Notes: generated from the sequence alone by a model not told the origin. DNA of 64,000 nt from Pseudomonadota bacterium (GCA_049324475.1 JBMOOO010000011.1:163557-227556); one strand, 5' to 3'. Shown: positions 125-15,296, numbered from the stretch's first letter. Numbers and translations: made by a program.

Positions 125-240
125 CGCATGGCCCCCGGAACCGGGGAGACCGGTTCCGGTGTGACAGGAAAGCACTGGCCGGCGCCCTGCTGCGGGCTAT
201 ACTCCGGCTCGCCCATGGATTCGGCTGCAGGTATTTCCCC

Positions 241-1587
241 ATGCAAACCCCCCCACGATTCCATCCGATTGTGCGATCGGCCCTCTTTCTGACCATGCTT
301 GCGGTTGCCCTGCCTGCGCACGCAGACAGCGTCGATGAACTGCATGCGCTGGTCGATGCAAACGACACCGCTGCCTGGGATATGGCGCAACGCATGGAGC
401 CTGACCATGCCGGCGATCCCGAGTTTGATTTCTGGTACGGCCTGGCGGCGAAAGCTGCCGGCAACAAGCAGAAAGCGATCTTTGCCTTCGAGCGCGTTGT
501 GATCAGCCAGCCCCAGAATGGCCGTGCCAAGCTTGAGCTGGCCGATGCCCATGCCGCCTATGGCAATACCCGCGAGGCAAAACGCCTGTTCCGGGAGGTG
601 CTCGCCACGACGCCGCCGGAACCGGTGCAGCAGCGTATCCGCACCTATCTGGGCGCGATTGATGCTGCGGACAGCAAGCAGAAAACCCGGGTCAGCAGTT
701 TCATCACCCTGGGCGGTGGTTACGATTCGAACGTCAACAGTGCGCCGGCACTGGCTGACCATGAAGTCGGCCCGCTGACGTTCACGCTGACGTCGGCTTC
801 GCTGGAAACCGATGCAGGCTTCGTCGATGTGCTGGCCGGTGTCGACGTGGTGAATCCGGTCAACCAGCGCACCCTGCGTTTCCTCAATGCCTCGGTGCAG
901 CGTCGCGACAACAACGAGATTTTCTCCGGCGGCAACTTCGATTATTCACAGGCCACACTTTCCGGTGGCTGGATGCTCAGGCGGGGCGCCGCCACCTGGC
1001 GTCTGCCGCTGACGGTGCAGGGCCTGTGGGTGGAAAGTGCCAGCGGCCCCGGCGCAGTCGTCAACGATGACCGTTTCGTCTTCTCTGCCGGCGCCGAATA
1101 CAACAAGCCGCTGTCGGCGCGCACGGCCGTGACCTGGTTTGGCCAGGCCGGCACGATGCACTATCCGTCCGAAGAGGACCGCGACGCCGACATCCTGTAT
1201 GTCGGCGGTGCCTGGATCTGGCAATCCGCCTCCAGCCCGCTGCGCCTCACCACCACGGGTCGCCTCGGCACCGAGCCGGCCGACGAGGACTTCAACAGCC
1301 GTGATTACCTGGCCCTGCGCCTGAATGCGCGCTGGGCCCTGTCGGCGACCCGCTCGGTCTACGGGGCGCTCGGTGTGCAGCAGTCGATGTACCAGGGCGA
1401 TCACCCGGTACTGACCTACGAACGCGAGGACACCCTGGTGGATGCATCGCTGGGCTGGCAGTGGCAGGTGGACAGTGACTGGAACCTGAATGTCGACCTG
1501 TCGTTTGCCGACAACAACTCGACCGACAACACGCTCTACGATTTCAACCGGGCCCAGTTCAAACTGGGTTCCACCTGGCGCTTCTGA
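241..1587 (+). CDS. Slam/DUF560-type outer-membrane protein (signal peptide, TPR region, C-terminal beta-barrel; type XI secretion-like translocon)
   Basis: ORF 121..1587. ATG 241 is preferred because it gives a signal peptide (MQTPPRFHPIVRSALFLTMLAVALPAHA|DS). TPR-like helix pairs (FDFWYGLAAKAAGNKQKAIFAFERVV; AKLELADAHAAYGNTREAKRLFREVL) are followed by a beta-strand-patterned region that starts FITLGGGYDSNVNSAP and ends with the OMP-type terminus FKLGSTWRF. Confidence 0.6.
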   Translation: MQTPPRFHPIVRSALFLTMLAVALPAHADSVDELHALVDANDTAAWDMAQRMEPDHAGDPEFDFWYGLAAKAAGNKQKAIFAFERVVISQPQNGRAKLELADAHAAYGNTREAKRLFREVLATTPPEPVQQRIRTYLGAIDAADSKQKTRVSSFITLGGGYDSNVNSAPALADHEVGPLTFTLTSASLETDAGFVDVLAGVDVVNPVNQRTLRFLNASVQRRDNNEIFSGGNFDYSQATLSGGWMLRRGAATWRLPLTVQGLWVESASGPGAVVNDDRFVFSAGAEYNKPLSARTAVTWFGQAGTMHYPSEEDRDADILYVGGAWIWQSASSPLRLTTTGRLGTEPADEDFNSRDYLALRLNARWALSATRSVYGALGVQQSMYQGDHPVLTYEREDTLVDASLGWQWQVDSDWNLNVDLSFADNNSTDNTLYDFNRAQFKLGSTWRF

Positions 1588-1601
1588 GCGGAGGACGAGA
1601 C

Positions 1602-3197
1602 ATGAAACAGGAATTCAGGCTGCGCCCGCTGGCGGCGCTGATCGTGGGCAGTGTCATGTTCGCTCCGGTGTCGGCCATCGCCGCCGAGCAGGCCGGCGTG
1701 CTGCTGGTCTCTTCCGGCGGTGTGAAGGCGATCGATGGCAGCGGCAATGCCCGCGACCTCAACCGCAAGTCGGCGGTCTACAGCGGTGACAAGCTGAAGA
1801 CCGGGTCCGGCGCGCGCGCGCAGATCAAGTTCACCGACGGTGCCATCGTCGGCCTGCGTCCGAACAGCGAGCTGCGCATCGACGAATATTCCTACACCGG
1901 TGATTCCGCCTCGAAGAGCTTCATGTCGTTGCTGAAAGGCGGGTTCCGGACCGTGAGCGGTGCCATCGGCAAGGCCGGTGGCGGCGACTACAAGGTGACG
2001 ACGCCGGTGGCCACCATCGGTATCCGCGGCACCTTGTGGGATGGCGAATACGACCCGGAAACCGGGCTGGACCTGGCCGTGTGGGACGGTGGTATCTCCG
2101 CCTGCGCGGCGGCCGGTGGCGGCTGTCTGGATCTGGGCGGTGATGTCGATTACCGCTACGGCCATGTCAGCCCGGACGGAACCATGACGGGCCTGAAGGA
2201 ATCACCGATCGACGAAGACGAAGATGACGAAGGCAACAGCGGTGCGGAGTACGACACCGTTTTCGACCAGCAGGAAAGCGACATGCTGGACGAGGACATC
2301 ACGCTGTTCCTGCCGTCGGACCATCTCTCCCGTGAGCGCTATCCGCTGGCCGGCTTCGGTGTCGCCAGCGGCAGCCGCTTCCCGTCGAGCCTGCTGCACC
2401 TGGACTTCGCCCGTTTCGATTCCGCGGCGTACATGGCCAATGCGTACGGCGGCTGGGGCGCGTTCCGGGAGTCGTCGACGGGGCAGTTCCTGATTCCGGG
2501 CTCGAGGTACGAGATCTGTGACGGGGAGTGCTATGTCTACGACAGCGGTTTCTCCGGCTCGGTTCAGGAGATCACCCTGGGACAGGATCCGGACACGGAT
2601 ATCATCTGGGGCTACTGGAACTACAACGGCATGTCACTGAGTGGCAGTGACGGCGATCCGACCCTGGATGCCCTGGATAACTACGGTCTGTTCGTACTCG
2701 GCTACAACGCAACCCCGGCGGTTGTGGCGACACTGACCGGCAATGCCTCGTTCACGCTGAGCAACCTCCAGATCCTGGATTCCAGCGGTTCTCCGAGCAC
2801 CGTGTCCGGTACCGGTTCCCTGAGCATGAACATGGATACCGGCAGTGCCTATGGCGGCATGTCCTTCCAGGACACCGGTTTCGACAGCTGGACCCTGGAT
2901 TTCTCGGGTACGGTGTCGAATGACGGCCTGAGCCTGGCGATGCTGACGGATACCGCCAACGCGACCAATGCGTCCTATTACATGTCCTATGGCGGCGCGG
3001 TGACGGCGCCCGTCCAGGGCACGGTGGAAGCGTCTTTCGTCGGCCAGACCTTTGTGGAGGCCGTCATCGGCGGATTCCAGGCGGACGCTGTGGATGCCGT
3101 GGATCCGACCACCGTTATCGACAGCGTCAAAGGCGTGTTCGTCATGCCGAATGACAATCCGCCCGTCATCATCGTGACGGAACCCCCCGCCAACTGA
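1602..3197 (+). CDS. Secreted FecR-domain protein with a C-terminal TbpB-like beta-barrel-type segment (candidate Slam cargo)
   Basis: GGAGGA 1589-1594 precedes ATG 1602. The signal peptide has no Cys (MKQEFRLRPLAALIVGSVMFAPVSAIAAEQ). FecR-type domain: SAVYSGDKLKTGSGARAQIKFTDGAIVGLRPNSELRIDEY ... YKVTTPVATIGIRGTLW. The C-terminal strand pattern GNASFTLSNLQ..GSLSMNMDTGSAYGGMSF..WTLDFSGTVSNDGLSL..GTVEASFVGQTFVEAVIGGFQA resembles TbpB-type barrel domains. Confidence 0.6.
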   Translation: MKQEFRLRPLAALIVGSVMFAPVSAIAAEQAGVLLVSSGGVKAIDGSGNARDLNRKSAVYSGDKLKTGSGARAQIKFTDGAIVGLRPNSELRIDEYSYTGDSASKSFMSLLKGGFRTVSGAIGKAGGGDYKVTTPVATIGIRGTLWDGEYDPETGLDLAVWDGGISACAAAGGGCLDLGGDVDYRYGHVSPDGTMTGLKESPIDEDEDDEGNSGAEYDTVFDQQESDMLDEDITLFLPSDHLSRERYPLAGFGVASGSRFPSSLLHLDFARFDSAAYMANAYGGWGAFRESSTGQFLIPGSRYEICDGECYVYDSGFSGSVQEITLGQDPDTDIIWGYWNYNGMSLSGSDGDPTLDALDNYGLFVLGYNATPAVVATLTGNASFTLSNLQILDSSGSPSTVSGTGSLSMNMDTGSAYGGMSFQDTGFDSWTLDFSGTVSNDGLSLAMLTDTANATNASYYMSYGGAVTAPVQGTVEASFVGQTFVEAVIGGFQADAVDAVDPTTVIDSVKGVFVMPNDNPPVIIVTEPPAN

Positions 3198-3217
3198 CGG
3201 GGTGCTGGGCCTCAGCG

Positions 3218-3245
3218 ACGGCGCCTTCGGGCGCCGTTTCTGTTT
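3218..3245 (+). terminator. Rho-independent terminator after the FecR-domain gene
   Basis: Stem ACGGCGCC (3218-3225), loop TTCG, stem GGCGCCGT (3230-3237), followed by TTCTGTTT. Confidence 0.7.
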
Positions 3246-3322
3246 CCGGGGCGAACCATATCGGTGCGATCCGGGGTGCAGCGCCCGATATTGGGGCGAT
3301 TCCGGGCGATCGCATCGCCTAA

Positions 3323-3790
<468 letters not shown>

Positions 3791-3800
3791 GGAGCCCTCC

Positions 3801-5108
3801 ATGAAAAAGATTCTCGCCGCGCTGCTGGCCGCAGCGCCGGCCGGCGCTTTTGCGGCCGACGGTATTGATCCGGGCGCCAGTGCCTGGCTGCTGACCGCCA
3901 CCGGTCTGGTGCTGTTCATGACCCTGCCGGGCCTCGCGCTGTTCTACGGCGGTCTGGTCCGCAGCAAGAACGTGCTGTCCGTGCTCATGCAGTGTTTCGC
4001 CATTGCCTGCGTCGCCACGCTGCTGTGGTTCGCCGTCGGCTACACGATGGCCTTCGGTGCCGGTGGCAACGGGTTCATCGGCGGTTTCGGCAATGTGTTC
4101 TTCGCGCAGATTGCCGAAGGTACGCTGACGCCGACGCTGTCCGCATCCGTGCTGGTGCCGGAATCGCTGTTCGCGCTCTTCCAGATGACCTTCGCCATCA
4201 TCACGCCGGCGCTGATCGTCGGCGCCTATGCCGAGCGCATGCGCTTCGGCGCCATGCTGCTGTTCAGCGCACTGTGGCTGCTGGCGGTGTACGCGCCGAT
4301 CACGCACTGGGTCTGGCACAGCGACGGCTGGCTGTTCAAGCAGGGGCTGCTGGATTTTGCCGGCGGCACGGTGGTTCACATCACGGCCGGTGTGGCGGCG
4401 CTGGTGTGCGCGCTGGTGCTCGGTCCGCGCAAGGGCTTCCCGCAGCAGCCGATGCCGCCGCACAACCTCACCATGGCCATGACCGGCGCCGGCATGCTGT
4501 GGGTGGGCTGGTTCGGTTTCAACGCCGGCTCCGCGCTGGCGGCCGACGGCAACGCCGCGATGGCGCTGGCGTCCACGCAGATTTCTGCGGCGGCGGGCGC
4601 TTTTGCCTGGATGTGCATCGAGTGGATCAGGCACGGCAAGCCGAGCGCGCTGGGCATCATCACCGGCATGGTGGCCGGCCTGGGCACCATCACGCCGGCG
4701 TCCGGCTACGTCGGCCCGGCCGGTGCGCTGGTGATCGGCCTGTCGGCCGGTGTGGTCTGCTTCTTTGCCACCATGGCGATCAAGCGCAAGCTGAAGATCG
4801 ACGATTCCCTCGACGTGTTCCCGGTACACGGCGTCGGCGGCATCCTCGGCACGTTCATGGCGGGCATTTTTGCGTCCGGCGCGCTGGGCATTTTCAGCGG
4901 CCAGGGCTATGCCGAAGGCGTGACCATGGGCAGCCAGCTCACGGTCCAGCTGACCGGCATTGCCGCCACCGGCCTGTACACGGCGGTGGTGACCTGGGTG
5001 CTGCTCAAGGCGGTTGGCCTGGTGACGGCCCTGCGGGTGACCCCGGACGAGGAAACCGAAGGTCTGGACCTCGTGCTGCACGATGAGCGCGGCTACGACA
5101 TCCGTTGA
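3801..5108 (+). CDS. amtB: Ammonium transporter AmtB
   Basis: 435 aa with a signal-like N-terminus and about 11 TM segments. Amt motifs: FYGGLVRSKNVLS, DFAGGTVVHITAGVAAL, WFGFNAGSA, VHGVGGILGT. AGGAG lies upstream of the ATG. Confidence 0.95.
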   Translation: MKKILAALLAAAPAGAFAADGIDPGASAWLLTATGLVLFMTLPGLALFYGGLVRSKNVLSVLMQCFAIACVATLLWFAVGYTMAFGAGGNGFIGGFGNVFFAQIAEGTLTPTLSASVLVPESLFALFQMTFAIITPALIVGAYAERMRFGAMLLFSALWLLAVYAPITHWVWHSDGWLFKQGLLDFAGGTVVHITAGVAALVCALVLGPRKGFPQQPMPPHNLTMAMTGAGMLWVGWFGFNAGSALAADGNAAMALASTQISAAAGAFAWMCIEWIRHGKPSALGIITGMVAGLGTITPASGYVGPAGALVIGLSAGVVCFFATMAIKRKLKIDDSLDVFPVHGVGGILGTFMAGIFASGALGIFSGQGYAEGVTMGSQLTVQLTGIAATGLYTAVVTWVLLKAVGLVTALRVTPDEETEGLDLVLHDERGYDIR

Positions 5109-5176: not shown

Positions 5177-5325
5177 GGCCGGCTCATTGACCGGATGTGC
5201 AGGGGGGGTGAACGAAAAGGCTATTGCCAAGGGGAGGGGGCGTCAGTAGGTTTGACCCTCGCTTCGAACACCCGTTTGAACGGATTCACCCCCACGATTC
5301 ATCCACCCGCGAGGAGACAGCACAC

Positions 5326-5715
5326 ATGGCCAAGTTCATGACCGACGCCTGGTTCACCGAAGTAGAGAAACTGATCGCCGCCGCCGGCGACCTGCAGCCG
5401 CCGGCTGCCCTGGCCGATCTCGTGCTGAACGTCACCGTGACCGGCACTTCCGAAGGTGACAAGCCGATGGCGATCGTTGCCGGCAAGTTCCAGAAAGGCC
5501 ACCAGTCGGGCGCCCCGACCCACCTGATCCTGCCGGTCGAGCTGGCCCAGCGCATCTTCATCGACAACGACCAGTCTGCCGGCATGCAGGGCTTCATGAG
5601 CGGCCAGATCAAGATCGAAGGCGACATGAGCCGCCTGATGGTCATGAACACCGTTCAGCCGTCCGCTCCGCAGAAAGACCTGCAGGGCAAGATCAAGGCG
5701 ATGACCACCGCCTGA
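5326..5715 (+). CDS. SCP2 (sterol/lipid carrier) domain protein
   Basis: GAGGAG 5311-5316 precedes ATG 5326. The 129-aa product reads MAKFMTDAWFTEVEKL...LNVTVTG... and ends with the SCP2-type FMSGQIKIEGDMSRLMVM. The longer ORF from 5224 lacks an RBS. Confidence 0.7.
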   Translation: MAKFMTDAWFTEVEKLIAAAGDLQPPAALADLVLNVTVTGTSEGDKPMAIVAGKFQKGHQSGAPTHLILPVELAQRIFIDNDQSAGMQGFMSGQIKIEGDMSRLMVMNTVQPSAPQKDLQGKIKAMTTA

Positions 5716-5769: not shown

Positions 5770-6834
5770 TTACGAAGCGTTTTGCCGGCCTGCCTGCCGC
5801 ATTGGCAGCTGCAGTACCGGTGCTTCTTCCAGCGTGTTGCCGGCCCGCCGGTAACGGCCGGGGCTGGTGCCCGTCCAGGCGCTGAAGGCCTTGCTGAAGC
5901 TGGCCTGGTCGCCATAGCCGACCTGTTCCGCGATTTCCTCGATCGGCAGGCTGGAACCGCGCAGCAGCCGGCGTGCGAATTCCAGCCGCACGCAATTGCG
6001 GATGTCGGTGAAGCTCTGGCCGGTTTCCTGCAGATGCCGGCGCAGCGAGCGGGCACTCAGACCCATGCGCTCGGCCACAGACTCCAGCGTGCAGTCACGC
6101 CCCGGATTCGACAGCACGCACCGGCGCAGCCGCAGCACGATTTCCGCTTCATCGGTGATGCCGGTTTCATGTGCGCCCAGTTTGGCGATGAGTTCCGGCG
6201 CGCGGTTTTCCTCCTGCCAGGCCGGGCGGCTGTGGTAGGTCAGCGTCGCCCGGCAGGCGGCCTGTCCGAACACCACCTGCCCGCGGTCCAGGCCGTGGAA
6301 GCCGCGGGTCGTGCGTGGCGCCGCGCAATCGAACTCGAGCCGGAGATCGCGTGTGGCCAGCGAGGCGATCGACAGAATGCTGCCCAGGTACATGCCGGTG
6401 ACGAAGTGACGGGTCGTTCCCAGGTCCCAGGTGTCTTCCATCTGCAGGTGCTGGCGCGGGCCGTCCTCGGTCAGCCGGATGTCCAGCAGTGGCAACCGGA
6501 CCCGGATGACGGTGACCACCATGCCGACCAGTTCACGCAGACGTTCGCGCCGCAGGATGCTGAAGCCGAGCAGCCCGTGTGCCGACAGATCGATGGTTCG
6601 TCCGAATTCGAAGCCCAGCGACTCGCGGGGCACCAGCCGGCAGGCCTGCTCGATCAGCCGCTGGATCTGCGCCACCGACAGGTAGACCTCGGGTTCGCGC
6701 AGGGCGGAAATGGGAACGCCCGTACCATCCAGCAGGACTTCCGGCGAAATGCCCTCACGCTGCATGTAGCGTGCAAGCACGGCGGCATAGTGGGCCGAGA
6801 TCATCGGGAAATTGCGTTCGTAGGCGTGTTTCAT
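5770..6834 (-). CDS. AraC-family transcriptional regulator (N-terminal effector domain plus C-terminal HTH)
   Basis: C-terminal AraC HTH: LSARSLRRHLQETGQSFTDIRNCVRLEFARRLLRGSSLPIEEIAEQVGYGDQASFSKAFSAWTGTSPGRYRR. It is divergent from the 7165 operon across a 330-nt, less GC-rich spacer. Confidence 0.85.
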   Translation of the reverse strand: MKHAYERNFPMISAHYAAVLARYMQREGISPEVLLDGTGVPISALREPEVYLSVAQIQRLIEQACRLVPRESLGFEFGRTIDLSAHGLLGFSILRRERLRELVGMVVTVIRVRLPLLDIRLTEDGPRQHLQMEDTWDLGTTRHFVTGMYLGSILSIASLATRDLRLEFDCAAPRTTRGFHGLDRGQVVFGQAACRATLTYHSRPAWQEENRAPELIAKLGAHETGITDEAEIVLRLRRCVLSNPGRDCTLESVAERMGLSARSLRRHLQETGQSFTDIRNCVRLEFARRLLRGSSLPIEEIAEQVGYGDQASFSKAFSAWTGTSPGRYRRAGNTLEEAPVLQLPMRQAGRQNAS

Positions 6835-7164
6835 CGTCTTTTTCTTGTACTTGGGAAGAACACGTCCGTGAAATCTAGACAGCCTTGCTGCGGCGTCAAC
6901 GCTATTCGTGTAGCGATCTGCAAACGTGATGCGGACTCGTCGGTCACCGGTTTTATCCGGCCATGCGCATGAATTCCGGGTGAGAAAAAAGTCTCAGTGA
7001 TGGCGGAAATTCCTGCGCCTAAAGCATTGCTGTGCCGGAACTGACAAAAAACTGGCCGCGGTTCGACTACGGGCCGGACACCCCGGTTTTGATAATCCGC
7101 CGCCGTCCGTACAGGACATTGCACGTGTCATCCCCGCAAAAAAACAACAACGTGGGAGCCTGCC

Positions 7165-7950
7165 ATGACCGAACCACTGACCTGCCGCCATCATCATCTG
7201 GCCGAGGTGTCCGTGCGCGAGATCCGGCGCATGTACGACATCTTCACGCAGTACTACGACAATGCGCCGCTCGACGTCTTTCTGCGCGACCTCAGCCGCA
7301 AGAGCGGCGTTTTCCTGGTGCGCCGGCGCCGTGACGGTGAAATTGTCGGATTCTCGACCGTGCACCGCTTCGACATGCAGGTCGACGGCCGTCCGGCCAT
7401 CGGTGTTTTCTCCGGCGATACGCTGATCGAGCGGGCCTACTGGGGGTCGCGGGCGCTGCAGCTGGCATTCACCCGGTATGTGTTCCGGATCCGTCTGTGC
7501 AATCCGCTCACGCCGTTGTACTGGTGCCTGATCTCCAAGGGCTACAAGACCTTCCTGCTGCTGGCCAACAACTTTCCGCGCTATTACCCGCACCCGGAAG
7601 GCCGCCATCCGGAGCTGGGTTCCGTGGTGCGCCAGTATTGCGGGCAGCTGTTTCCGGGGAATCTCGACGCTGCCGGCATGCTGCTGTATTTCGGCGAGAA
7701 CGCGCAGCGGTTGCGTGAGGAAACGGCCCCGATCACCGAAGCCACCCGCCGGCGCTACGCCAAGGTGGCCTTTTTCGAGCAGTGCAATCCGACCTGGCAA
7801 TCGGGTACCGAGCTGCCCTGCATCGGCATGCTGGGCTGGACGGATTTCGCGATGTTTGCGCGCCGTGACCTGCTGAAACTGTTGCGGCGCCGGCGCGAGG
7901 CGCATCCGGAAATGCAGCTGGCGGCTGCCGACGGCGACATGGCGGACTGA
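7165..7950 (+). CDS. Hypothetical protein, possibly a GNAT-fold acyltransferase (first gene of the GH3 operon)
   Basis: GGGAG 7153-7157 precedes ATG 7165. 261 aa. The segment GEIVGFSTVHRFDMQVDGRPAIGVFSGDTLIERAYWGSRALQLAF looks like a GNAT beta4-alpha3 core. No signal peptide. The fold call is tentative. Confidence 0.4.
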   Translation: MTEPLTCRHHHLAEVSVREIRRMYDIFTQYYDNAPLDVFLRDLSRKSGVFLVRRRRDGEIVGFSTVHRFDMQVDGRPAIGVFSGDTLIERAYWGSRALQLAFTRYVFRIRLCNPLTPLYWCLISKGYKTFLLLANNFPRYYPHPEGRHPELGSVVRQYCGQLFPGNLDAAGMLLYFGENAQRLREETAPITEATRRRYAKVAFFEQCNPTWQSGTELPCIGMLGWTDFAMFARRDLLKLLRRRREAHPEMQLAAADGDMAD

Positions 7951-7953
7951 GCC

Positions 7954-9603
7954 GTGGCTGTGCAGGCTGGCAATGTCCGGGCCGGGCACTTTGCCCTGTC
8001 GCTGGCGGTTGCACCGGCGTATCGGCAGTTTGCGGCCGGTCTTGGCGATCCCGAGTCCGTGCAGCGGCAGCTGCTGGCGCAGTTGCTGAAGGCCGTGGCA
8101 CGCGCACACGGCAACCGCTTCCGCGTCGATGCCGGCTGGCGCTGGGAGGATTTCACGCGTCACGTTCCGGTGACGACCTGGCAGGACTGGCAGCTGGCCG
8201 TGGACGCGCAACTGCATGAGAAGCGTCGGCTGCTGGTGGATTCCCCCGTTGTGCGCTACCAGCCCACCAGCGGTTCCACCTCGGCGATCAAGCTGGTTCC
8301 GTACACGAAGCGGTTTCTCGGCGAGCTCGACGCAGCCATCGCACCATGGCTGGGTGATCTGTACCGGCAGTATCCGGCGATCCGGGGCGGCCGGCACTAC
8401 TGGTCGGTGTCATGGTTGCCGAACACGTTGCGTGAGCGTTTCCGTGCCGACCTGAACGATGACATGCAACTACTGGCTGCCGGCAAGCGCTGGCTCGCTG
8501 CACGCACACAATCGGTACCGCAGGAAACGTCGCTGGCCGATACCTCGGATGGTTCGCTGTTCGCCACCCTGGCATTTCTCGCAGCCGATGAACGTCTCGG
8601 CATGCTGTCGGTATGGAGCCCGACCTTCGGGCTGGCGCTGCTGGAAAGGCTGGCCGTGTGGCGCGATCCGCTGGCGGTGTGTCTGACAACCGGGGAGTGG
8701 CCGCGCGGTTTCGGCGAGTTCGGCGATCTGGCCTGCCCCCGCTCGCCGCGTGCGGCATCGCTGCTGCGGGGCTGGAACGGCCAGCAGGATCCGGAATTCT
8801 TTCGTGCCCTGTGGCCGGCGCTCGCGCTGGTCAGTGCCTGGGATACCGCGGCCGCGGCACCCTGGGCCGACGCATTGCGTGCGCGTTTGCCGCACACGGC
8901 ATTCCAGGGCAAGGGTTTGTGGGCCACGGAAGGTGTGGTCACCATCCCGTTCCGCAACGAGCACGTGCTGGCCTACCGCAGCCATGTGTATGAATTCGAG
9001 GATGCCGACACCGGCCGCATCTGCGCTCCCTGGGAGCTGCAGGCCGGGCAGTCGGTCATCCCCTTGCTGTCCACCGGCAGTGGCCTGCTGCGCTACCGCA
9101 TGAACGACGTGCTGGAAGTCGGCAGGAAAATGGGCGAGGTGCCCACGCTGCGCTTCCTCGGGCGCAATGACGGCGTCGATCTGGCCGGCGAGAAGATCAG
9201 CACGGCGGTTGCGCAGAAAGTGCTGGCAACCCTGGGTGCGCAACACGGCCTGCGTCCGCTGACGCTGCTGGCAGCACACGATGCCGGCAACGGCCGGCCG
9301 GGCTACCTGTTGCTGGCGGAAGCAGCCGACGCACGTGCGCGGATCCCGGAAACCCGGGTGGCTGCAGAACTGGAGCAGGCACTGCTGGCGCACTTCCACT
9401 ACCGGCTGGCCCGCGATCTCGGTCAGCTGGCACCGGCGCGGGTCGTGGTACGGGATGACATGCAGCTGCAGTACGTACGCATGCGGCAGGCAGCCGGCAT
9501 GATCGAGGGCAACGTCAAGGTCGAAGCGCTTACCGCATGGCGCCGGCCACTGCCGCCGGCACTGGCGTTGCCGGCGGAAACGGCCTTGCAGGTGTGTGCA
9601 TGA
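7954..9603 (+). CDS. GH3-family adenylate-forming acyl-acid amido synthetase
   Basis: GTG 7954 lies 3 nt after the upstream stop. GH3 motifs are present in order: PTSGSTSAIKLVPYT, GLWATEGVVTIP, GLLRYRMNDVLEVGRKMGEVPTLRFLGR. 549 aa. The exact start is uncertain. Confidence 0.75.
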   Translation: MAVQAGNVRAGHFALSLAVAPAYRQFAAGLGDPESVQRQLLAQLLKAVARAHGNRFRVDAGWRWEDFTRHVPVTTWQDWQLAVDAQLHEKRRLLVDSPVVRYQPTSGSTSAIKLVPYTKRFLGELDAAIAPWLGDLYRQYPAIRGGRHYWSVSWLPNTLRERFRADLNDDMQLLAAGKRWLAARTQSVPQETSLADTSDGSLFATLAFLAADERLGMLSVWSPTFGLALLERLAVWRDPLAVCLTTGEWPRGFGEFGDLACPRSPRAASLLRGWNGQQDPEFFRALWPALALVSAWDTAAAAPWADALRARLPHTAFQGKGLWATEGVVTIPFRNEHVLAYRSHVYEFEDADTGRICAPWELQAGQSVIPLLSTGSGLLRYRMNDVLEVGRKMGEVPTLRFLGRNDGVDLAGEKISTAVAQKVLATLGAQHGLRPLTLLAAHDAGNGRPGYLLLAEAADARARIPETRVAAELEQALLAHFHYRLARDLGQLAPARVVVRDDMQLQYVRMRQAAGMIEGNVKVEALTAWRRPLPPALALPAETALQVCA

Positions 9604-10691
9604 CAGCCTGCATCCGGCCGGCTGCGATGACCGACGGGCCGCGCATTCTGGATCTGATCGGGCGCACGCCGCAGCGCGGTCTGGTGACGCTCAACTTCGA
9701 GCGCAATCCGGATTTCTTCATCGGTGCCCGTGTGAGCTGCGAGGAGCCGGACGTCTGGGTTGCCGAAGAAGAGGCGGGGCGTTTGCTGGCGGTGTTCAAC
9801 ATCGGCCATCGTACGGTCTTTGTGAACGGTACACCGCGCCGCATCCGCTACGCGCACGATCTGAGGATTGACCCGGAAGCCCGCGGTACCCTGTTGCTGC
9901 ACCGCATGTTCCGCCGGCTGCGCCGGATGCTGTCCGATGGCGAGTGGATGCAGACCGTGATCCTGGCCGAGAACCGGGCGTCGATCGAAACGGTGGGTTC
10001 GGGGCGGGCCGGGTTGCCACGGTATTACCCGTGCGGGGATATCGAGACCTCGCTGGTGTCGACGTCATCTGCGCGCCCGCGGCCCGGCAACGGCATCGAG
10101 GTGTCCGCTGCCACCGCGGCGGACCTCCCGGCACTGCAGGCTTTCCTCGACACGGAAGCGCCGCTGCGGCAATTCTGTCCGCACTATCGTTTGTCCGGAT
10201 TGCTGTCCGACGACAGTTATTTCAACGGCCTGTTGCCCGGCAATTATCTGCTGGCGCGATACGCCGGCCGGATCGTCGGTGTGATGGGTGACTGGGACCA
10301 GGCCGCGTTCAAGAAAACGCGTGTGCTGTCCTATCCCGGCGCGCTGGCCTGGGCGCGGCCGCTCTACAACGCACTGCGTCCCTTTACCGGCGGGCTTCGT
10401 CTGCCGCCGGCGGGTGGTACGCTGCGCTACCGCATGCTGCATACGGTGCTGGTGCACGATCAGGACCCGGACGTGTTCCGGCTGTTGCTGGAATACCAGC
10501 GACATGCACACCGGGATACGGCGGATGCCCTGGTGGTCGGTGCGTTTGCCGGCGATCCGCTGCTGGCCGGCCTGCGTGGCCTGCGCCGGCGTACCCAGCG
10601 CAGCCATCACTATCTGGTCTGCTACGACGGCGACCCCCGCGAGCAGCTGCGGCCGGGTCCGGTGCCGCACATCGATCTGGCACGGCTCTAG
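9600..10691 (+). CDS. Tandem (double) GNAT-type N-acyltransferase
   Basis: ATG 9600 overlaps the GH3 stop (ATGA at 9600-9603); the alternative ATG is 9627. N-terminal GNAT core: RIRYAHDLRIDPEARGTLLLHRMFRRLRRM. A second GNAT-like half follows (LPALQAFLDTEAP...YAGRIVGVMGDW...). Confidence 0.6.
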   Translation: MTACIRPAAMTDGPRILDLIGRTPQRGLVTLNFERNPDFFIGARVSCEEPDVWVAEEEAGRLLAVFNIGHRTVFVNGTPRRIRYAHDLRIDPEARGTLLLHRMFRRLRRMLSDGEWMQTVILAENRASIETVGSGRAGLPRYYPCGDIETSLVSTSSARPRPGNGIEVSAATAADLPALQAFLDTEAPLRQFCPHYRLSGLLSDDSYFNGLLPGNYLLARYAGRIVGVMGDWDQAAFKKTRVLSYPGALAWARPLYNALRPFTGGLRLPPAGGTLRYRMLHTVLVHDQDPDVFRLLLEYQRHAHRDTADALVVGAFAGDPLLAGLRGLRRRTQRSHHYLVCYDGDPREQLRPGPVPHIDLARL

Positions 10692-10696
10692 AGGCA

Positions 10697-10726
10697 CAAA
10701 AAAGCCCGCACTCGGCGGGCTTTCTT
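10697..10726. terminator. Bidirectional hairpin terminator
   Basis: AAAAAAGCCCGC-ACTC-GGCGGGCTTTCTT lies between the stop at 10691 (+) and the stop at 10741 (-). Confidence 0.8.
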
Positions 10727-10740
10727 CGCGGGTACGGTTT

Positions 10741-11919
10741 TCAGGCCGTGACCGGTTTGCGCATCACTTCCTGGGCCAGGATATGCAGGCGCTGCTTTTG
10801 CATGCGCAGCGAGTATTCCAGTTCCTTCAGGCGGGTACGCATCGCGGTATTTTCCCAGCGGCCGGCGATTTCGCGGCGTTTCTGGTCGTACCGTTTCATC
10901 TGCAGTTCGGTGAAGGCGTTCAGCGTGCTGCGGAAGGCTTCGTATTCCTGCTCCACCAGCAGCTTCCAGCGCTCGACATTGCCGGACAGGGCTACCTGCT
11001 GCTCCACACGCTTGAACTGCATGCTGACGATGGCGCGCTGGATCTTGAAGTTGCTGACACGCTTCAGGTCCCAGGTGAGTCCGACCCAGGAACAGGCCTG
11101 GATCATCCACTTGGTCGGATCCCACTGATACCAGCGGATGCCGTTGCGGTAGTCGGTCTGGAAGATGTGGTGATAGTTGTGATACCCCTCGCCCCAGGTG
11201 AACAGTGCCAGCACATCGTTGTCGCGTGCGGTGTTCTCGTCGGTGTAGGGCTGACGGCCCCACATGTGGGCCAGTGAGTTGATGAAGAAGGTCACGTGAT
11301 GGCTGACCACGAGGCGCAGCACGCCGGCCAGCAGGAAATAACCGATGACGTCACCGGCCAGCAGGCCCAGGGCCACGGGAATGCCGATGTTGGTCAGCAG
11401 CACCAGTGGCAGGTAGTAGTTGTGCTGGAACATCACGATCGGGTCGCGCTTCAGGTCGTTGACGTTGCTGAAGTCGACCTTGCCGCTCGGGTATTCGCGC
11501 AGCATCCAGCCGATATGCGAGAACCAGAAGCCGCGCTTCGCGGAATAGGGATCAAGGTCCACGTCATCGACGTGGCGGTGGTGGACGCGATGTCCCGAAG
11601 CCCAGATCAACGCGCTGTTCTGCAGGGCCATGGCGCCGAATACGGCGTAGAACACACGCAGCGACCAGTGCGCTTCGTAGGTCTTGTGTGCCCACAGCCG
11701 GTGATAGCCGCCGGTGATGGACATGCCGTTGGCCACCAGCAGCAGGCCGAAGGCAACCCAGGCGCCGAGGCTGTAGCCGTGCGCGAAGCCGTACCAGGGA
11801 ACAAGGGTGAGCGCGGCGATACCGGTGGCAGCGAACAGGATGGTGGTGGTCCAGATTCGCGGCGCGTGTTCTTTCTGCGTCGCAGTCAGGGAGTCGGCGG
11901 GCTTGCGCTCGTCGGTCAT
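10741..11919 (-). CDS. Membrane acyl-CoA (delta-9) fatty-acid desaturase
   Basis: The three His boxes HRLWAHKTY, HRVHHRHVDD and HNYHHIF are in the canonical order, with N-terminal TM pairs. The ATG at 11919 (MTDERKP) is preferred over 11955. Confidence 0.9.
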   Translation of the reverse strand: MTDERKPADSLTATQKEHAPRIWTTTILFAATGIAALTLVPWYGFAHGYSLGAWVAFGLLLVANGMSITGGYHRLWAHKTYEAHWSLRVFYAVFGAMALQNSALIWASGHRVHHRHVDDVDLDPYSAKRGFWFSHIGWMLREYPSGKVDFSNVNDLKRDPIVMFQHNYYLPLVLLTNIGIPVALGLLAGDVIGYFLLAGVLRLVVSHHVTFFINSLAHMWGRQPYTDENTARDNDVLALFTWGEGYHNYHHIFQTDYRNGIRWYQWDPTKWMIQACSWVGLTWDLKRVSNFKIQRAIVSMQFKRVEQQVALSGNVERWKLLVEQEYEAFRSTLNAFTELQMKRYDQKRREIAGRWENTAMRTRLKELEYSLRMQKQRLHILAQEVMRKPVTA

Positions 11920-12044
11920 CGTGATTCTCTCGGGAGGGCTGCGGGCGGCCGCCAACGGCGGACCGAGCCCGGATCATAGCACGCGGGATTCGCGTCCGAG
12001 CCGCCCCCTCCCTGTGGCGGGGCGACGTAACGTGTTGTTACACG

Positions 12045-12605
12045 TCAGGATTTTCCGTCACGCGGTTTCGTATCCCCGGTGCGCTGCTCGGCGTCGCGGC
12101 GCTCTGCCGACAGGCGGCGTGCCGATGGCGGATTGCGACCCATGATCACCTTCCAGAACGGGATGCGGCGGGTCAGCGAAGCCATCTCGTCAACCCGGTC
12201 GGACAGCCCGGACAGCTTGTCCACGGTATCGCGTACGCCGGCCAGTTCGTCCACGTCCTCGGCGATGCGGAACACCACCATGTAGAACTCCAGCAGGCCG
12301 CGCAGCAGCGAGGCCAGCACCACGAACGTGAGCGGGCCGGCGAAGAACAGGTAGAAGAACCCGCGCCAGTGGCTGCCGGAGGCGAAGGCCTCCACGATCA
12401 GGTAGATGATGCCCACGCCCATGGCGAACAGCAGCATGCCGTACAGGATCGGCAGCATCTGGATGATCATGTATTTCTCGAACGAGAAATCGAACAGCGC
12501 CTTCCAGTACTGGATCACCCACAGCCAGGCGCGGCGGGCGCGCTCCTGCAGGCTGCGTTGCCCTGCCGGCGGTTCCGGGTTCTTCATGTCGTCGTTCGTG
12601 CTCAT
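12045..12605 (-). CDS. DUF4282-type small membrane protein
   Basis: 186 aa. Motif LFDFSFEKYMIIQMLPILYG is followed by two or three TM helices. It lies 4 nt downstream of the DUF2804 gene on the same strand. Confidence 0.55.
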   Translation of the reverse strand: MSTNDDMKNPEPPAGQRSLQERARRAWLWVIQYWKALFDFSFEKYMIIQMLPILYGMLLFAMGVGIIYLIVEAFASGSHWRGFFYLFFAGPLTFVVLASLLRGLLEFYMVVFRIAEDVDELAGVRDTVDKLSGLSDRVDEMASLTRRIPFWKVIMGRNPPSARRLSAERRDAEQRTGDTKPRDGKS

Positions 12606-12609
12606 GCGA

Positions 12610-13653
12610 TCACCATTTGGCGTACTGCTCCTCGACGAATCCGGGCAGGCCGGCGACGGCCAGGGTCTCGTTGCCGACCATGACGGTACCGTGGAAATGC
12701 CCGAAGACCTGTTTGAAATCGGTGGCGAACAGCAGCAGGTTCATCTTCTCGGTGTGGGCGCCGGCCGGCCGGAAGGCCAGGTCGACCGAACCGTCGGCGG
12801 TACGTACCTGCCAGGGGCGGCCGACCGGGTCGCGGGCATCGTAGTCGAACCGGGTCAGGCCGGTGGCCACCCGTTGTCCGTCAAGCCAGAGGCAGTTCTC
12901 GCTGAAACTGGTCTCGTTGACCCCGCAGGACAAATTCAGGCCCAGCAGCCGTTCCCGGCCGCCGGTGCGAACCCGTCCTGACAGGCAGGCCCAGTTCCAG
13001 AAGGTTTCCCGGCGCATGTAGCCGGCCGAGAAGTCGTGGTGGCCGCAGGCGCCCAGTCCGGCCAGATCGTAGTCCTGGCCGGCGGCGGAGATGCGGCCGC
13101 TGACCGGCAGGCCTGCGACCTTGTTGGCGAAGGTCCAGCCGTTGATGCCGGTGCGGGTGCAGAGGGGCAGGGACCGGTAGGAGGCCGGTTCCGGCAGCTC
13201 GGCATCGATCGTCATGGGTGTACGGCCATGCAGCCGCACCTGCAGTGTTTTCAGCAGGCTGCCGTCGGCATGGCGGCGATAGCCGAGCCGGATGCCGGCC
13301 CCGGAGGCGGCCAGCCGGCTTTCTCCCTCGACCGGGGAGCGGCTCATGGCCAGGCCGCGGCCCAGCGGCAGGCGCAGGGTGCGCTCGGTCAGGGTGTTGG
13401 TGGCCAGGTCATGCACGTACACGAAGGCCAGCCCGACATAGCCGGTATGGGCCAGCGCGCAGCCGGCCAGCACGCGGTCGGCCAGCACACCGAAGTACTG
13501 GAACTGCTTGTAGTGAAGGTGCCGGGCCAGTGCGGACTGCGGGCGGCCCAGGGGGGTGCGGTAGTCGAAGTCGCGGCCATTGATGTCGGCCGGAGGACGC
13601 TCGAACAGGCCCAGGCGGACCTGGCCATCGGGGGTGATCAGGGTATCGGTCAT
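12610..13653 (-). CDS. DUF2804-family protein
   Basis: Start ATG 13653 (MTDTLITPDGQV...); the alternative is 13680. The remaining 5' part of the 873-aa ORF is antisense to the oxygenase gene and has no protein-like composition. Recognisable segments: HHDFSAGYMRRETFWNWA and LNLSCGVNETSFSENCLWLDG. Confidence 0.6.
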   Translation of the reverse strand: MTDTLITPDGQVRLGLFERPPADINGRDFDYRTPLGRPQSALARHLHYKQFQYFGVLADRVLAGCALAHTGYVGLAFVYVHDLATNTLTERTLRLPLGRGLAMSRSPVEGESRLAASGAGIRLGYRRHADGSLLKTLQVRLHGRTPMTIDAELPEPASYRSLPLCTRTGINGWTFANKVAGLPVSGRISAAGQDYDLAGLGACGHHDFSAGYMRRETFWNWACLSGRVRTGGRERLLGLNLSCGVNETSFSENCLWLDGQRVATGLTRFDYDARDPVGRPWQVRTADGSVDLAFRPAGAHTEKMNLLLFATDFKQVFGHFHGTVMVGNETLAVAGLPGFVEEQYAKW

Positions 13654-13797
13654 GCGCGGGGTTCCGGGGTGGAAACGCATGGTAAGCGCCGGTTGGCAGG
13701 GTGACCATCGGGTTCTATAGTCCGGACGGCAAAACCCGTCGGTTCGCGCAGCGCATGCCACGGGCCACCCGGAACACCACGCGCAGGGGACACGTCC

Positions 13798-15261
13798 ATG
13801 AACATCGCCCTGACCGGCCAGCGCCGCCTGACCCATGCCGATGTCGGCCTGCCTTCGCACACGCACCGCCGCGGCTTCGACGCCCTGGAAACCGAGCATG
13901 ACTACCGGGTGGAAACCGTGCAGGGCGGCCTGCCGGCGGATTTTGCCGGCACCCTCTTCCGCAACGGCCCGGGCCGCAACCGCATCGGTGGCCGCAAGTT
14001 CGGTCACTGGTTCGACGGCGACGGCATGCTGTCGCGCATTACGTTCCGCGACGGCGAAATCCATTACTGCAACCGCTATGTGCGCACGCCGAAATACATG
14101 GCCGAAACCGCGGCACAGAAAATCCTCTACCGGGGTTTCGGCACGCAGAAGCCGGGCGGTGTGCTGGCCAACATCGGCCGTCCGCCGGCCAACGTCGCCA
14201 ACACCAGCGTGGTGTATCACGCCGGGAAGCTGCTGACGCTGTGGGAAGGCGGGCATCCGTGGGAGATCGACCCGGCGACCATGAGCACGGTCGGGGAGTA
14301 CGACTACGACGGCGTCCTGAAATTCATGTGGCCGTTCAGCGCCCACGGCAAGCTGAACCCGGCCACCGGCGAGTACGTCAACTTCGGTGTGCAACCGGGC
14401 AAAACCTCGCGCATCAATGTGTACCGCATATCGCCGAAGGGGCAGGTGATCGCCACCGGGCACTTCCCGCTGAAGGCGCCGGTGTTCCTGCACGACTTTG
14501 CACTCACGGAAAACCACGCCGTGTTCTTCATCGGGCCGGTCGAGTTCCACCGCATGTGGCGCTTCCTGGGCGGTCTGGATTCGCTGGACCAGTGCATGGC
14601 ATTCAATCCGTCCCGCCCGTCGCGCGTGCTGGTGGTGGATCTGCGCACCATGAGCATGGTGGTCGACAGTGAAATCCCCGCCGGCGTGTTCATCCACTAC
14701 GGGAATTCGTTCGAGGAAAACGGAAAGATCGTCACGGAAGTGACCCGCTATCCGGATTTTGCGGTCGACAGTGCCCTGCGCGACGTATTCAACAGCGAGG
14801 TTCCCGAAGCCGGTGATTACTGGCGGTACACCATCGATCTGGCCAGCGGCAAGGTCGATGGAGCCCCGGTGCCGGGGCTGTTGCAGTGCGAGTTTCCGGT
14901 ATTCGATGCCCGGCTCGGCCTCAGACGTCACCGCTATACCTGGATGGCAACGATGGCCAACAACGGCACGCAGATTTTCTTCAATTCGCTGCAGAAGTAC
15001 GACGCCGTCACCGGCGATGTGCAGACCCACGACTTCGGGCCGGGCCGGTTTACCTCCGAGCCGCTGTTCATGCCACGCCACGAGACGTCCGGTGAAGACG
15101 AGGGCTATCTCGCCAGTGTCGTCTACGATTACCGCAAGGACCTCAGCGAAGTGGTCGTGCTCGACGCCGCCGACATCACGAAGACCGTGGCTGTCGCCAC
15201 CCTGAAGCACCATGTTCCGTTCGGATTCCACGGCTGTTACGTGCCGAAAACGTTTGCCTGA
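13798..15261 (+). CDS. Carotenoid/apocarotenoid (stilbene) cleavage oxygenase family protein
   Basis: FRNGPGRNRIGGRKFGHWFDGDGMLSRITFRDGEIHYCNRYVRTPKY. The four iron-ligand His contexts are present in order (FSAHGKLNP, FLHDFALTENH, FIHYGNSFEE, PFGFHGCYV). Confidence 0.85.
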   Translation: MNIALTGQRRLTHADVGLPSHTHRRGFDALETEHDYRVETVQGGLPADFAGTLFRNGPGRNRIGGRKFGHWFDGDGMLSRITFRDGEIHYCNRYVRTPKYMAETAAQKILYRGFGTQKPGGVLANIGRPPANVANTSVVYHAGKLLTLWEGGHPWEIDPATMSTVGEYDYDGVLKFMWPFSAHGKLNPATGEYVNFGVQPGKTSRINVYRISPKGQVIATGHFPLKAPVFLHDFALTENHAVFFIGPVEFHRMWRFLGGLDSLDQCMAFNPSRPSRVLVVDLRTMSMVVDSEIPAGVFIHYGNSFEENGKIVTEVTRYPDFAVDSALRDVFNSEVPEAGDYWRYTIDLASGKVDGAPVPGLLQCEFPVFDARLGLRRHRYTWMATMANNGTQIFFNSLQKYDAVTGDVQTHDFGPGRFTSEPLFMPRHETSGEDEGYLASVVYDYRKDLSEVVVLDAADITKTVAVATLKHHVPFGFHGCYVPKTFA

Positions 15262-15296
15262 TTGCAGTTTCCGGCCCCGCCGGCGAGGAGATATCG

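Follow-up and report, generated by a model that had tools for sequence, protein, structure and literature searches.

What does a GH3 enzyme, a member of the acyl-acid amido synthetase family, do in a bacterial operon? The question arises from a stretch of 64,000 nucleotides from a Pseudomonadota bacterium (hereafter the window), in which three plus-strand genes lie in a row: ORF1 (7165–7950, 261 amino acids), the GH3 gene (7954–9603, 549 amino acids, GTG start) and ORF3 (9600–10691, 363 amino acids). Divergent from this trio, on the minus strand, is the gene for an AraC-family regulator (5770–6834, 354 amino acids), which is separated from ORF1 by a 330-bp control region (6835–7164). The initial annotation had described these genes and their junctions, three GH3 motifs and a downstream hairpin, and each was present where it had been placed. 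In particular, the tight coupling that it claimed was found at both junctions: the stop codon of ORF1 (TGA, 7948–7950) lies 3 nucleotides before the GTG at 7954, and an ATGA at 9600–9603 combines the GH3 stop codon with the overlapping start codon of ORF3. In a near-identical public contig (L001), genes that were called independently have the same four starts and stops. None of the four proteins (AraC, ORF1, GH3 and ORF3) matched the anti-phage defence models of PADLOC.

The GH3 enzyme and its control region

Pfam searches with the GH3 family profiles (PF03321/PF23571/PF23572) confirmed the middle protein, at the level of sequence, as a three-domain GH3-family enzyme. The N-terminal domain matched at 4.5e-26 (92.2 bits, cut-off 23.6) and GH3_M at 6.2e-10 (39.5 bits, cut-off 23.6), while the match to GH3_C, a domain annotated in many close homologues, was slightly below its cut-off of 23.6 (4.2e-4, 21.4 bits); the original GH3 assignment thus survived the profile search. 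Every sequence match in the PDB was a plant GH3 amido synthetase, and none was a generic ANL ligase. The three motifs for which it had been singled out (PTSGSTSAIK, GLWATEG and YRMNDVLEV) were all located by reference to the SSGTSxGxxK-like, YGSSE-like and GLYRYRxGD-like motifs of the family (PMC12493201): motif I, PTSGSTSAIK, at residues 104–113 (TSGSTSAIK, 105–113; nucleotides 8263–8292); motif II, FQGKGLWATEG, at residues 317–327 (WATEG, 323–327; nucleotides 8902–8934); and motif III, GLLRYRMND, at residues 377–385 (nucleotides 9082–9108), with YRMNDVLEV at 381–389. The C-terminal lysine lies in GNVKVE (nucleotides 9508–9525). The core residues of the motifs, including S106, were invariant in 35 homologues.

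The divergently encoded regulator has an N-terminal ligand domain of the Arabinose_bd type (1.7e-18) and a C-terminal HTH_18 domain (7.6e-24), and its Pfam matches to HTH_18, HTH_AraC and Arabinose_bd all exceeded their cut-offs, which places it in the AraC/XylS family; its best NCBIfam matches, to QhpR, CypR and GliR, were all far under the cut-offs. The same divergent position is taken by an orthologue in the locus L012 (70% identity), in loci of Alcanivoracaceae and elsewhere. The operon had been described as AraC-controlled: the divergent gene is there as claimed, whereas control by its product is what we infer, and only 22 of 51 trio loci have a divergent AraC gene within 800 nucleotides. 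Aligned with the orthologous spacer of L012, the 6835–7164 spacer shows islands of identity amid otherwise diverged sequence, with conserved boxes AACTGACAAAAAACTGGCC (7039–7057) and GATAATCCGCCGCC (7091–7104), the latter including a −10-like GATAAT. A putative ribosome-binding site for ORF1 (GGGAG) is at 7154–7158, and by consensus scan the AraC gene has a predicted sigma-70-like promoter at 6899–6872 on the minus strand.

At the other end of the trio, between ORF3 and a convergent desaturase gene on the minus strand, a hairpin can be read at 10701–10723, with a 9-bp GC-rich stem (AAAGCCCGC / GCGGGCTTT) and a 5-nucleotide loop. Its folding energy is −17.1 kcal/mol (z = −2.3) on the plus strand and −21.0 kcal/mol (z = −3.3) on the minus strand, and only on the minus strand is it followed by a U6 tail (UUUUUU). 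The hairpin is a predicted bidirectional intrinsic terminator of ORF3 and the desaturase gene, and because of the better U-tract on the minus strand it would terminate the desaturase gene at least as much as the operon.

Two flanking proteins with predicted GNAT folds

ORF1 had no match in Pfam or NCBIfam even at E = 10. Its AlphaFold model (pLDDT 89.4, pTM 0.83) comprises a single GNAT domain with an insertion of ~80 residues between helix α4 and strand β6, and the best Foldseek match of the model was the GNAT enzyme AAC(2')-Ia (E = 8.7e-7, probability 1.0), with Eis, N-myristoyltransferase and PA4794 next; many GNATs were matched with a probability of 1.0. Because no sequence profile matched, it is by predicted fold only that we assign ORF1 to the GNAT superfamily. 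Across 42 homologues 48 columns are invariant, and the signatures are GFSTV (62–66), FSGDT..YWGSRAL (82–98), which spans β4 and the predicted pyrophosphate-binding loop, LISKGYKTFLLLANNF (122–137) and FFE.CNP.W..GTELPC.G (203–221). With ORF1 as its founding member we define a large family, of 1844 cluster representatives, for which Pfam has no model. In this family the ORF1 domain is found fused to FA_desaturase, to PAP2 plus FA_desaturase, and to an MMPL transporter, fusions that point to lipid substrates. Eight ORF1 homologues are solitary, standing among housekeeping genes with no GH3 gene, and ORF1 is therefore not strictly dependent on GH3 and ORF3. One further fusion in the family is to a topoisomerase fragment, and some fusions could be gene-calling artefacts.

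ORF3 fell below every Pfam and NCBIfam threshold, has no Pfam family of its own and matched no solved structure at the level of sequence; weak matches to the Pfam GNAT profiles Acetyltransf_1/9 occurred in 11 of 44 members of its family (best 6.7e-5). Its AlphaFold model (pLDDT 93.6, pTM 0.91) matched the glucosamine N-acetyltransferase of C. acetobutylicum over its full length (Foldseek E = 2.8e-12, TM 0.62–0.70), and other full-length matches were the tandem GNAT MAB_4324, MshD, N-myristoyltransferases, Eis and VipF. As modelled, ORF3 consists of two consecutive GNAT domains and so belongs to the tandem class. The N-terminal domain (residues ~1–155) carries a CoA-type β4-loop-α3 signature, RYAHDLRIDPEARGTLLLHRMF, which the C-terminal domain (residues ~165–345) lacks, and the latter would probably serve as an acceptor-binding pseudo-GNAT. 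Both flanking proteins have the canonical β4-loop-α3-β5-α4 GNAT core in high-confidence models, and their earlier description as a GNAT-like and a tandem-GNAT protein is borne out by AlphaFold and Foldseek as predicted acyltransferase folds, one single and one tandem. The GNAT fold itself is hardly informative on the acyl donor or acceptor, and the top Foldseek matches are aminoglycoside and sugar acetyltransferases.

Conservation of the trio and its proposed pathway

The three genes proved to be conserved together. GH3 homologues led to 12 loci of relatives, in Pseudomonas, Alcanivoracaceae, Burkholderiales and the lineage of the window, and all 12 contained the trio in the same order; among loci reached through ORF1 the GH3 gene was directly downstream in 44 of 52 and ORF3 was present in 41 of 50, counts that overstate independence because the samples include near-duplicate contigs. 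As the same gene order is kept in dozens of unrelated loci, the tight coupling of the trio is more than chance. The linkage of the three families persists at 25–44% identity: it is seen in A. baumannii (ORF1-GH3-OMF-ORF3, behind MFP-MFS), in Burkholderia arboris (ORF1-ORF3-x-desaturase-GH3-Rieske) and on a Citrobacter plasmid (ORF1-GH3-2 rSAM-ORF3-2 rSAM-PAP2). The A. baumannii trio, which also has overlapping start and stop codons, lies inside a complete tripartite efflux operon, and the desaturase type of the ORF1 fusions recurs within the B. arboris cluster.

Pump genes (of the RND or MFS type, with a membrane-fusion protein) accompany the trio in 36 of 43 loci, and a condensation/PapA-type acyltransferase with HxxxDG in 28 of 43; some loci add desaturase, TauD, radical-SAM or PAP2 genes, and Abhydrolase_10 genes occur sporadically near relatives' loci. 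The window operon has the divergent AraC regulator only and no pump, and its closest relative is likewise pump-less. The surroundings had also been called lipid-oriented, a description that held in part. MaoC and SelO genes separate ORF3 from the desaturase gene in the closest relative, so the adjoining desaturase reflects lineage synteny and falls outside the system. The SCP2 call in the window (E = 0.004) is under the Pfam threshold, yet an SCP2-like gene beside the AraC gene recurs in three lineages. The idea of a lipid connection is itself independently supported by the ORF1 fusions. Trio hosts include hydrocarbon-degrading marine and freshwater bacteria (many are hydrocarbon degraders, among them Alcanivorax, Aquabacterium and Pseudomonas benzenivorans) and the pathogen A. 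baumannii. Hosts that are in culture include A. baumannii ATCC 19606 (trio at F911_01943–01946), Allohahella marinimesophila, Aquabacterium sp. NJ1 and Pseudomonas benzenivorans DSM 8628.

The identities of the three proteins, their intact catalytic motifs and their genomic coupling, as established above, and the folds of their predicted models lead us to read the trio as a single cassette that synthesises an acylated amino-acid (or amine) conjugate, in all likelihood a lipid or surfactant of the lipoamino-acid type, a reading to which we give a probability of roughly 0.55. An N-acylated small-molecule pathway had been suggested before, and the GH3 profiles, the co-conservation and the predicted GNAT folds support it. 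Substrates, step order and product are as we infer them. The pathway would be ATP-dependent, with GH3 moving an acyl group, most likely that of a fatty acid by analogy with the bacterial GH3 enzyme OlsH, onto the amino group of an amino acid or amine to form an amide without CoA or ACP. ORF1 and ORF3 would acylate a further head-group amine from acyl-CoA or acetyl-CoA; alternatively, they may make an N-acylated partner that GH3 then couples. In the window's genome the operon is on its own, presumably controlled by its divergent AraC-type regulator. The trio of most other lineages has a condensation-superfamily (HxxxDG) acyltransferase and a tripartite efflux pump behind it, which suggests that the product there is further acylated and secreted.

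Chance juxtaposition, in which a GH3 gene and two housekeeping acetyltransferases are mere neighbours, would be in keeping with the solitary ORF1 homologues in eight loci, but we regard it as highly improbable: the order is kept across Gamma- and Betaproteobacteria, the linkage outlasts rearrangement at 25–44% identity, and start and stop codons overlap both in the window and in A. baumannii, conservation data that contradict it. A role in detoxification or resistance has more in its favour. Plant GH3s conjugate auxinic herbicides to amino acids, and in such a scheme GH3 would conjugate a toxic exogenous acid (aromatic, naphthenic or xenobiotic) to an amino acid, the GNATs would acetylate amine-bearing toxins, the pump would expel the conjugates and the AraC protein would sense the toxicant. 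The pumps with membrane-fusion proteins in 36 of 43 loci would fit this scheme, as would the many hydrocarbon-degrading hosts and a regulator that is CypR-like (sub-threshold) and related to xenobiotic- or alkane-responsive regulators. Among the best structural matches of the GNATs are two resistance enzymes, AAC(2')-Ia and Eis, but at 10–17% identity this likeness is that of the generic GNAT fold. The strict order and translational coupling of three enzymes suit a pathway better than independent detoxifiers. The acyltransferases that often accompany the trio are biosynthetic in nature, as are the desaturase, TauD, radical-SAM and PAP2 genes of some loci, and the ORF1 fusions indicate endogenous lipids. 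We therefore consider the detoxification scheme as a whole unlikely.

The conjugate might instead be a membrane aminolipid, a GH3-made lyso-aminolipid that stays in the membrane for stress adaptation, as in the OlsH/OlsI pathway, with the GNATs replacing OlsI or modifying the head group. OlsH is a precedent (PMC12493201), neither the window nor its closest relative has a pump, the fusion partners of ORF1 are membrane lipid enzymes and an SCP2-like gene is close by. Most trio loci have a dedicated exporter, however, and the A. baumannii operon contains an outer-membrane factor; GNATs are typically N- rather than O-acyltransferases and so would be poor stand-ins for OlsI or OlsA; and an AraC-type activator suggests a conditional rather than a structural role. 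These points leave a membrane aminolipid doubtful.

As for the cassette for an acylated conjugate, its members have no described product, substrate or phenotype, in A. baumannii as elsewhere. A bolder proposal, to which we give somewhat less than even odds, is that the trio forms the core of a widespread and so far undescribed pathway of Gamma- and Betaproteobacteria, whose secreted product, a biosurfactant or signal, would be an amino-acid lipid of a new, multiply N-acylated class, made by way of two profile-less GNAT families, with ORF1 defining a lipid-acting family of more than 1800 cluster representatives. Identifying the product would assign functions to two sizeable Pfam-less protein families, might bring to light a new surfactant or signal of the lipoamino-acid type, and would yield amide-forming enzymes that need neither CoA nor ACP and are of interest to biotechnology.

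Comparison with known systems

ORF3 shares its full-length two-GNAT architecture with MshD, N-myristoyltransferase, Eis, the C. acetobutylicum glucosamine N-acetyltransferase and MAB_4324, at just 10–16% identity, and like MshD and N-myristoyltransferase it has the CoA-type loop signature in one domain and lacks it in the other. ORF1 resembles the GNAT-fold lipid N-acyltransferases OlsB, GlsB and FeeM (Pfam Acetyltransf_5) in size (~250–300 amino acids) and fold, and an N-acyl amino acid role, as in FeeM-type enzymes, would suit its lipid-linked fusions. Against the OlsB/GlsB/FeeM-type Pfam models, however, ORF1 had no match at E = 10, and these enzymes were absent from its top 50 structural matches. 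ORF1 retains a CoA-type pyrophosphate loop (YWGSRAL), which acyl-ACP-dependent members of this group are not known to have.

The plant GH3 enzymes (JAR1/AtGH3.11, AtGH3.5, AtGH3.12 and AtGH3.15) belong to the same Pfam family as the window GH3 and share all three domains and the motif architecture; two-step adenylation and amidation is established for the family, and by analogy we take it to be the same here. Similarity is very low (PDB phmmer E of at least 2e-4), the window GH3 is ~50 residues shorter and lies in a bacterial operon, and a phytohormone is an unlikely acyl substrate for it. The legionellol cluster of Legionella pneumophila likewise combines a GH3 gene (lol1/lpg2225) with an MFS exporter in a lipid/surfactant cluster, but that cluster is assembled from genes of the FAS/PKS type and includes none for a GNAT (PMC5640695). 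Inactivating lol1 left legionellol production unchanged (PMC5640695), so GH3 is dispensable for that lipid and the cluster lends the trio no functional support.

Bacterial GH3 proteins had been called essentially uncharacterised in the initial annotation, a statement outdated by OlsH of Singulisphaera acidiphila, which joins a free fatty acid to ornithine, with ATP and Mg2+, to give N-acyl-ornithine (J Biol Chem 2025; PMC12493201). Like the window GH3, OlsH has the three nucleotide-binding motifs, and its essential S115 corresponds to the invariant S106 here (PMC12493201); both are encoded in operons with one or more acyltransferases, and the ATP/Mg2+-dependent joining of fatty acid and amino acid is the chemistry that we propose for the trio. 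The partners differ. Those of OlsH are the α/β-hydrolase O-acyltransferase OlsI and the methyltransferase OlsG, whereas those of the trio are two GNAT-fold proteins, often with an added condensation-type acyltransferase and pump, and neither gene calls nor Pfam placed an α/β-hydrolase gene in the window's operon. In the published survey of OlsH (Sinac_1599) homologues (at least 30% identity and at least 70% coverage), the trio-bearing orders Pseudomonadales, Oceanospirillales, Moraxellales and Burkholderiales are missing from the list of orders, which suggests that the window GH3 is not an OlsH ortholog and makes any transfer of substrate from OlsH weak. OlsH is the only bacterial GH3 with a demonstrated function, and the trio would represent a second, differently wired GH3 pathway.

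Architecture of the operon and identities of its products

An ORF scan placed three plus-strand genes, ORF1 (7165–7950, 261 aa), the GH3 gene (7954–9603, GTG start, 549 aa) and ORF3 (9600–10691, 363 aa), beside a divergent AraC-type gene (5770–6834, minus strand), and independent gene calls on the near-identical public contig L001 gave the same four coordinate pairs. The tight coupling proposed in the initial annotation could be read directly in the sequence: the TGA of ORF1 (7948–7950) is separated from the GH3 gene by a 3-nt gap, and the GH3 gene and ORF3 overlap in an ATGA at 9600–9603. The GC-rich hairpin described there does lie directly 3′ of the ORF3 stop codon, with a stem (10701–10709/10715–10723) that folds on either strand, at –17.1 (plus) and –21.0 kcal/mol (minus). 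Because a clean U6 tail is found on the minus strand only, this hairpin suits the convergent desaturase gene no less well than the operon. Three islands in the spacer between the AraC gene and ORF1 were retained in L012, the 70%-related locus of the closest relative: 7039–7057 (AACTGACAAAAAACTGGCC), 7091–7104 (which includes GATAAT) and the RBS at 7154–7158. All are candidate operator and promoter elements. A divergent AraC gene lay within 800 nt of the three genes (hereafter the trio) in 22 of 51 loci.

Pfam searches detected all three GH3 domains in the middle protein (N-terminal, 4.5e-26; middle, 6.2e-10; C-terminal, 4.2e-4), which also contains the three nucleotide-binding motifs, namely motif I (PTSGSTSAIK, residues 104–113), motif II (FQGKGLWATEG, residues 317–327), motif III (GLLRYRMND, residues 377–385) and the C-terminal element GN(I/V)K(I/V)E with its lysine. 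The core residues of the three motifs and the C-terminal lysine element were invariant across 35 homologues with 50–71% identity, and the only matches among solved structures, all weak, were to plant GH3 amido synthetases. The domains and motifs thus uphold the proposed GH3 assignment over that of a generic ANL ligase.

Neither ORF1 nor ORF3 matched anything above threshold in Pfam, NCBIfam or PADLOC, the last of which led us to reject a role in anti-phage defence, and their family profiles returned only noise from PDB sequences. Both families are highly conserved, with 48 invariant columns in that of ORF1 and 26 in that of ORF3, and weak Pfam GNAT matches appeared in 11 of 44 ORF3-family members. 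AlphaFold models searched with Foldseek bore out the expectation that both flanking proteins have acyltransferase folds, a single GNAT in ORF1 and a tandem GNAT in ORF3. The ORF1 model (pLDDT 89.4) best resembled AAC(2')-Ia (E 8.7e-7), followed by Eis, N-myristoyltransferase and PA4794, and its predicted core has the canonical beta4-loop-alpha3-beta5-alpha4 arrangement (FSGDT..YWGSRAL.., LISKGYKT..). Ahead of the final core strand, on which an invariant ELPC motif lies, there is a conserved insertion of ~80 residues. The ORF3 model (pLDDT 93.6) matched over its full length the glucosamine N-acetyltransferase of C. acetobutylicum (E 2.8e-12), as well as MAB_4324, MshD, N-myristoyltransferases, Eis and VipF. 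Only the N-terminal half of ORF3 has a CoA-type loop signature, and this half is probably the one that binds the donor.

Co-conservation of the trio

GH3 homologues led to loci from the lineage of the window (L001, L002 and L012), from Alcanivorax and Alloalcanivorax, from two Burkholderiales genomes, one of them Aquabacterium, and from seven Pseudomonas genomes (the latter from a single-sequence contig scan, beyond which an alignment query would reach further), and the trio kept the same gene order in each of them. Among 80 metagenome loci fetched with the ORF1 profile, ORF1 was directly followed by GH3 in 44 of the 52 long enough to contain it, and ORF3 was found in 41 of 50, although these counts are not fully independent because the contigs are partly near-duplicates. 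At much greater distances the three families remained together after rearrangement, in A. baumannii, Burkholderia arboris and a Citrobacter IncF plasmid. The interpretation in the initial annotation would have failed had the three genes not been co-conserved in relatives, and it withstands this check.

The A. baumannii locus (L097, NZ_CP104448.1, 3443–12035) has the order MFP-MFS-ORF1-GH3-outer-membrane factor-ORF3, in which stop and start codons overlap, and which places the trio within a tripartite efflux operon. Its MFP gene is apparently broken by IS elements (transposase ORFs at 2309–3334 and 3616–4548), and the record is 4.09 Mb long and bears a plasmid label. In Burkholderia arboris the order is ORF1-ORF3-unknown-FA desaturase-GH3-Rieske oxygenase. 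The Citrobacter portucalensis IncF plasmid (L098, NZ_CP134684.1, 7301–17488) is mobilisable and bears a distantly related form of the cassette, ordered ORF1-GH3-two B12-radical-SAM-ORF3-like GNAT-two radical-SAM-PAP2. Five radical-SAM genes, no fewer than three of which encode a B12-binding domain, and a PAP2 phosphatase gene are interspersed with it, a gene content that suggests a heavily tailored, horizontally mobile lipid product.

ORF1 relatives of ~50% identity also occur without GH3 or ORF3 (L030, L044, L045, L048, L058, L063, L065 and L079). Seven of these eight solitary homologues form one clade, sister to the ORF1 of the window, amid housekeeping genes, and a TyrRS gene adjoins the solitary ORF1 in two of four loci examined (L030 and L044). 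An Abhydrolase_10 gene directly follows the solitary ORF1 of L044, and another lies near a distant trio in L095.

Export genes and a possible lipid link

We counted accessory genes in the 43 trio loci whose downstream sequence extends for 5 kb or more. In 36 of these the trio was accompanied by genes for an efflux pump (of the RND or MFS type, together with a membrane-fusion protein), and 28 encoded a condensation/PapA-type acyltransferase whose HxxxDG motif is intact; 25 loci had both, and four, including L012, had neither. No homologue of these acyltransferases and pumps turned up when the window was searched for them. The window has the minimal, AraC-linked form of the cassette. In Allohahella marinimesophila (L100, 6083–8537), the operon of trio and pump genes is flanked by divergent genes for a full condensation/PapA_C protein and for a dioxygenase of the TauD family, an arrangement that may point to a hydroxylated amino-acid head group in this species.

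The ORF1-family profile recruited 1844 cluster representatives, with E ≤ 1e-30 for 602. Among the best 150 of the 1844, ORF1 domains with intact signature motifs were joined in one protein to FA_desaturase, to PAP2 and FA_desaturase together, to an MMPL transporter or to Cupin_8/JmjC (fusion-bearing proteins P0370, P0387, P0407, P0423 and P0361, with Lnb_N domains also among the partners); these proteins come from a library that lacks genomic context, and some may be gene-calling artefacts. One such fusion has a desaturase domain that shares 30% identity (E 4e-29) with the desaturase encoded in the B. arboris cluster. The ORF1 family, for which Pfam has no model, thus has the look of a large GNAT family, associated with lipids, that has gone unrecognised.

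The initial annotation had also called the surrounding genes (SCP2, desaturase) lipid-oriented. The adjacent desaturase (10741–11955) was rejected as a member of the system: two extra genes intervene in the closest relative, it is absent elsewhere, and it belongs to a different subfamily, unrelated to the desaturases that occur in ORF1 fusions or share a cluster with ORF1. A small SCP2-like protein encoded upstream of the AraC gene (5323–5715, plus strand) recurs beside that gene in three lineages (84% identity in L012, 54% in L017 and L020) and is a possible lipid-carrier accessory, but its Pfam match (E 0.004) falls below the cut-off. Downstream, at 10741–16886, lies a conserved mixed-strand block that is shared in synteny with L001 and L012 and has no linkage to the trio elsewhere. 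It encodes a Delta9-type FA desaturase extended by a long C-terminal segment, DUF4282 and DUF2804 proteins, a carotenoid oxygenase of the RPE65 family and a GMC oxidoreductase. Farther upstream (3377–5108 and 121–3197) the context is one of housekeeping genes, with glnK (P-II), the ammonium transporter gene amtB and genes for two FecR-domain proteins, as in L012.

A proposed pathway and its relation to known GH3 systems

The best-supported reading is that the trio is a biosynthetic cassette, which agrees with the original interpretation of the operon as one that makes or edits an N-acylated small molecule; the finding is real. The protein identities, the integrity of the motifs and the genomic coupling are what the data establish, whereas we infer substrates, step order and product. 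GH3 would adenylate a carboxylic acid (most likely a fatty acid) and join it through an amide bond to an amine or amino acid, and ORF1 and ORF3 would transfer acyl or acetyl groups from CoA thioesters onto further amines. Alternatively, the GNATs might act first and supply an N-acyl amino acid, the carboxylate of which would be joined by GH3 to a second amine. In most lineages, the additional condensation-type acyltransferase and the exporter would complete the pathway.

Other explanations seem less probable than such a cassette. A pathway for a membrane aminolipid, with a product that stays in the cell rather than being secreted, is unlikely, and a module for conjugating and expelling xenobiotics is somewhat more doubtful still. 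That the three genes adjoin by chance is very improbable and is contradicted by the conservation data.

Our literature searches on this cluster in Alcanivorax, Marinobacter, Aquabacterium and Acinetobacter returned only a STRING-derived mention, and for the A. baumannii locus F911_01941-01946 we found no functional work beyond a STRING association. The legionellol cluster of Legionella contains a GH3 gene, lol1, that is dispensable for that surfactant (PMC5640695), and since knocking it out changed nothing we did not count it as functional support. Bacterial GH3 proteins can no longer be called essentially uncharacterised. OlsH, a GH3-like enzyme of Singulisphaera acidiphila, converts a free fatty acid and ornithine, with ATP and Mg2+, to N-acyl-ornithine and requires its motif-I serine, S115; the alpha/beta-hydrolase OlsI then O-acylates the product, and the authors remark that other bacterial GH3 homologues probably take other amino acids (PMC12493201). 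The orders that carry the trio are missing from the homologue lists of both that study and a 2026 review (PMC12971839). The cassette is widespread, present in a major pathogen and linked to export in most loci, and its underlying chemistry now has precedent. It is best classed as chemistry of a known type, GH3-dependent N-acyl amino-acid formation, in which the novelty lies in different and previously unprofiled partner enzymes.
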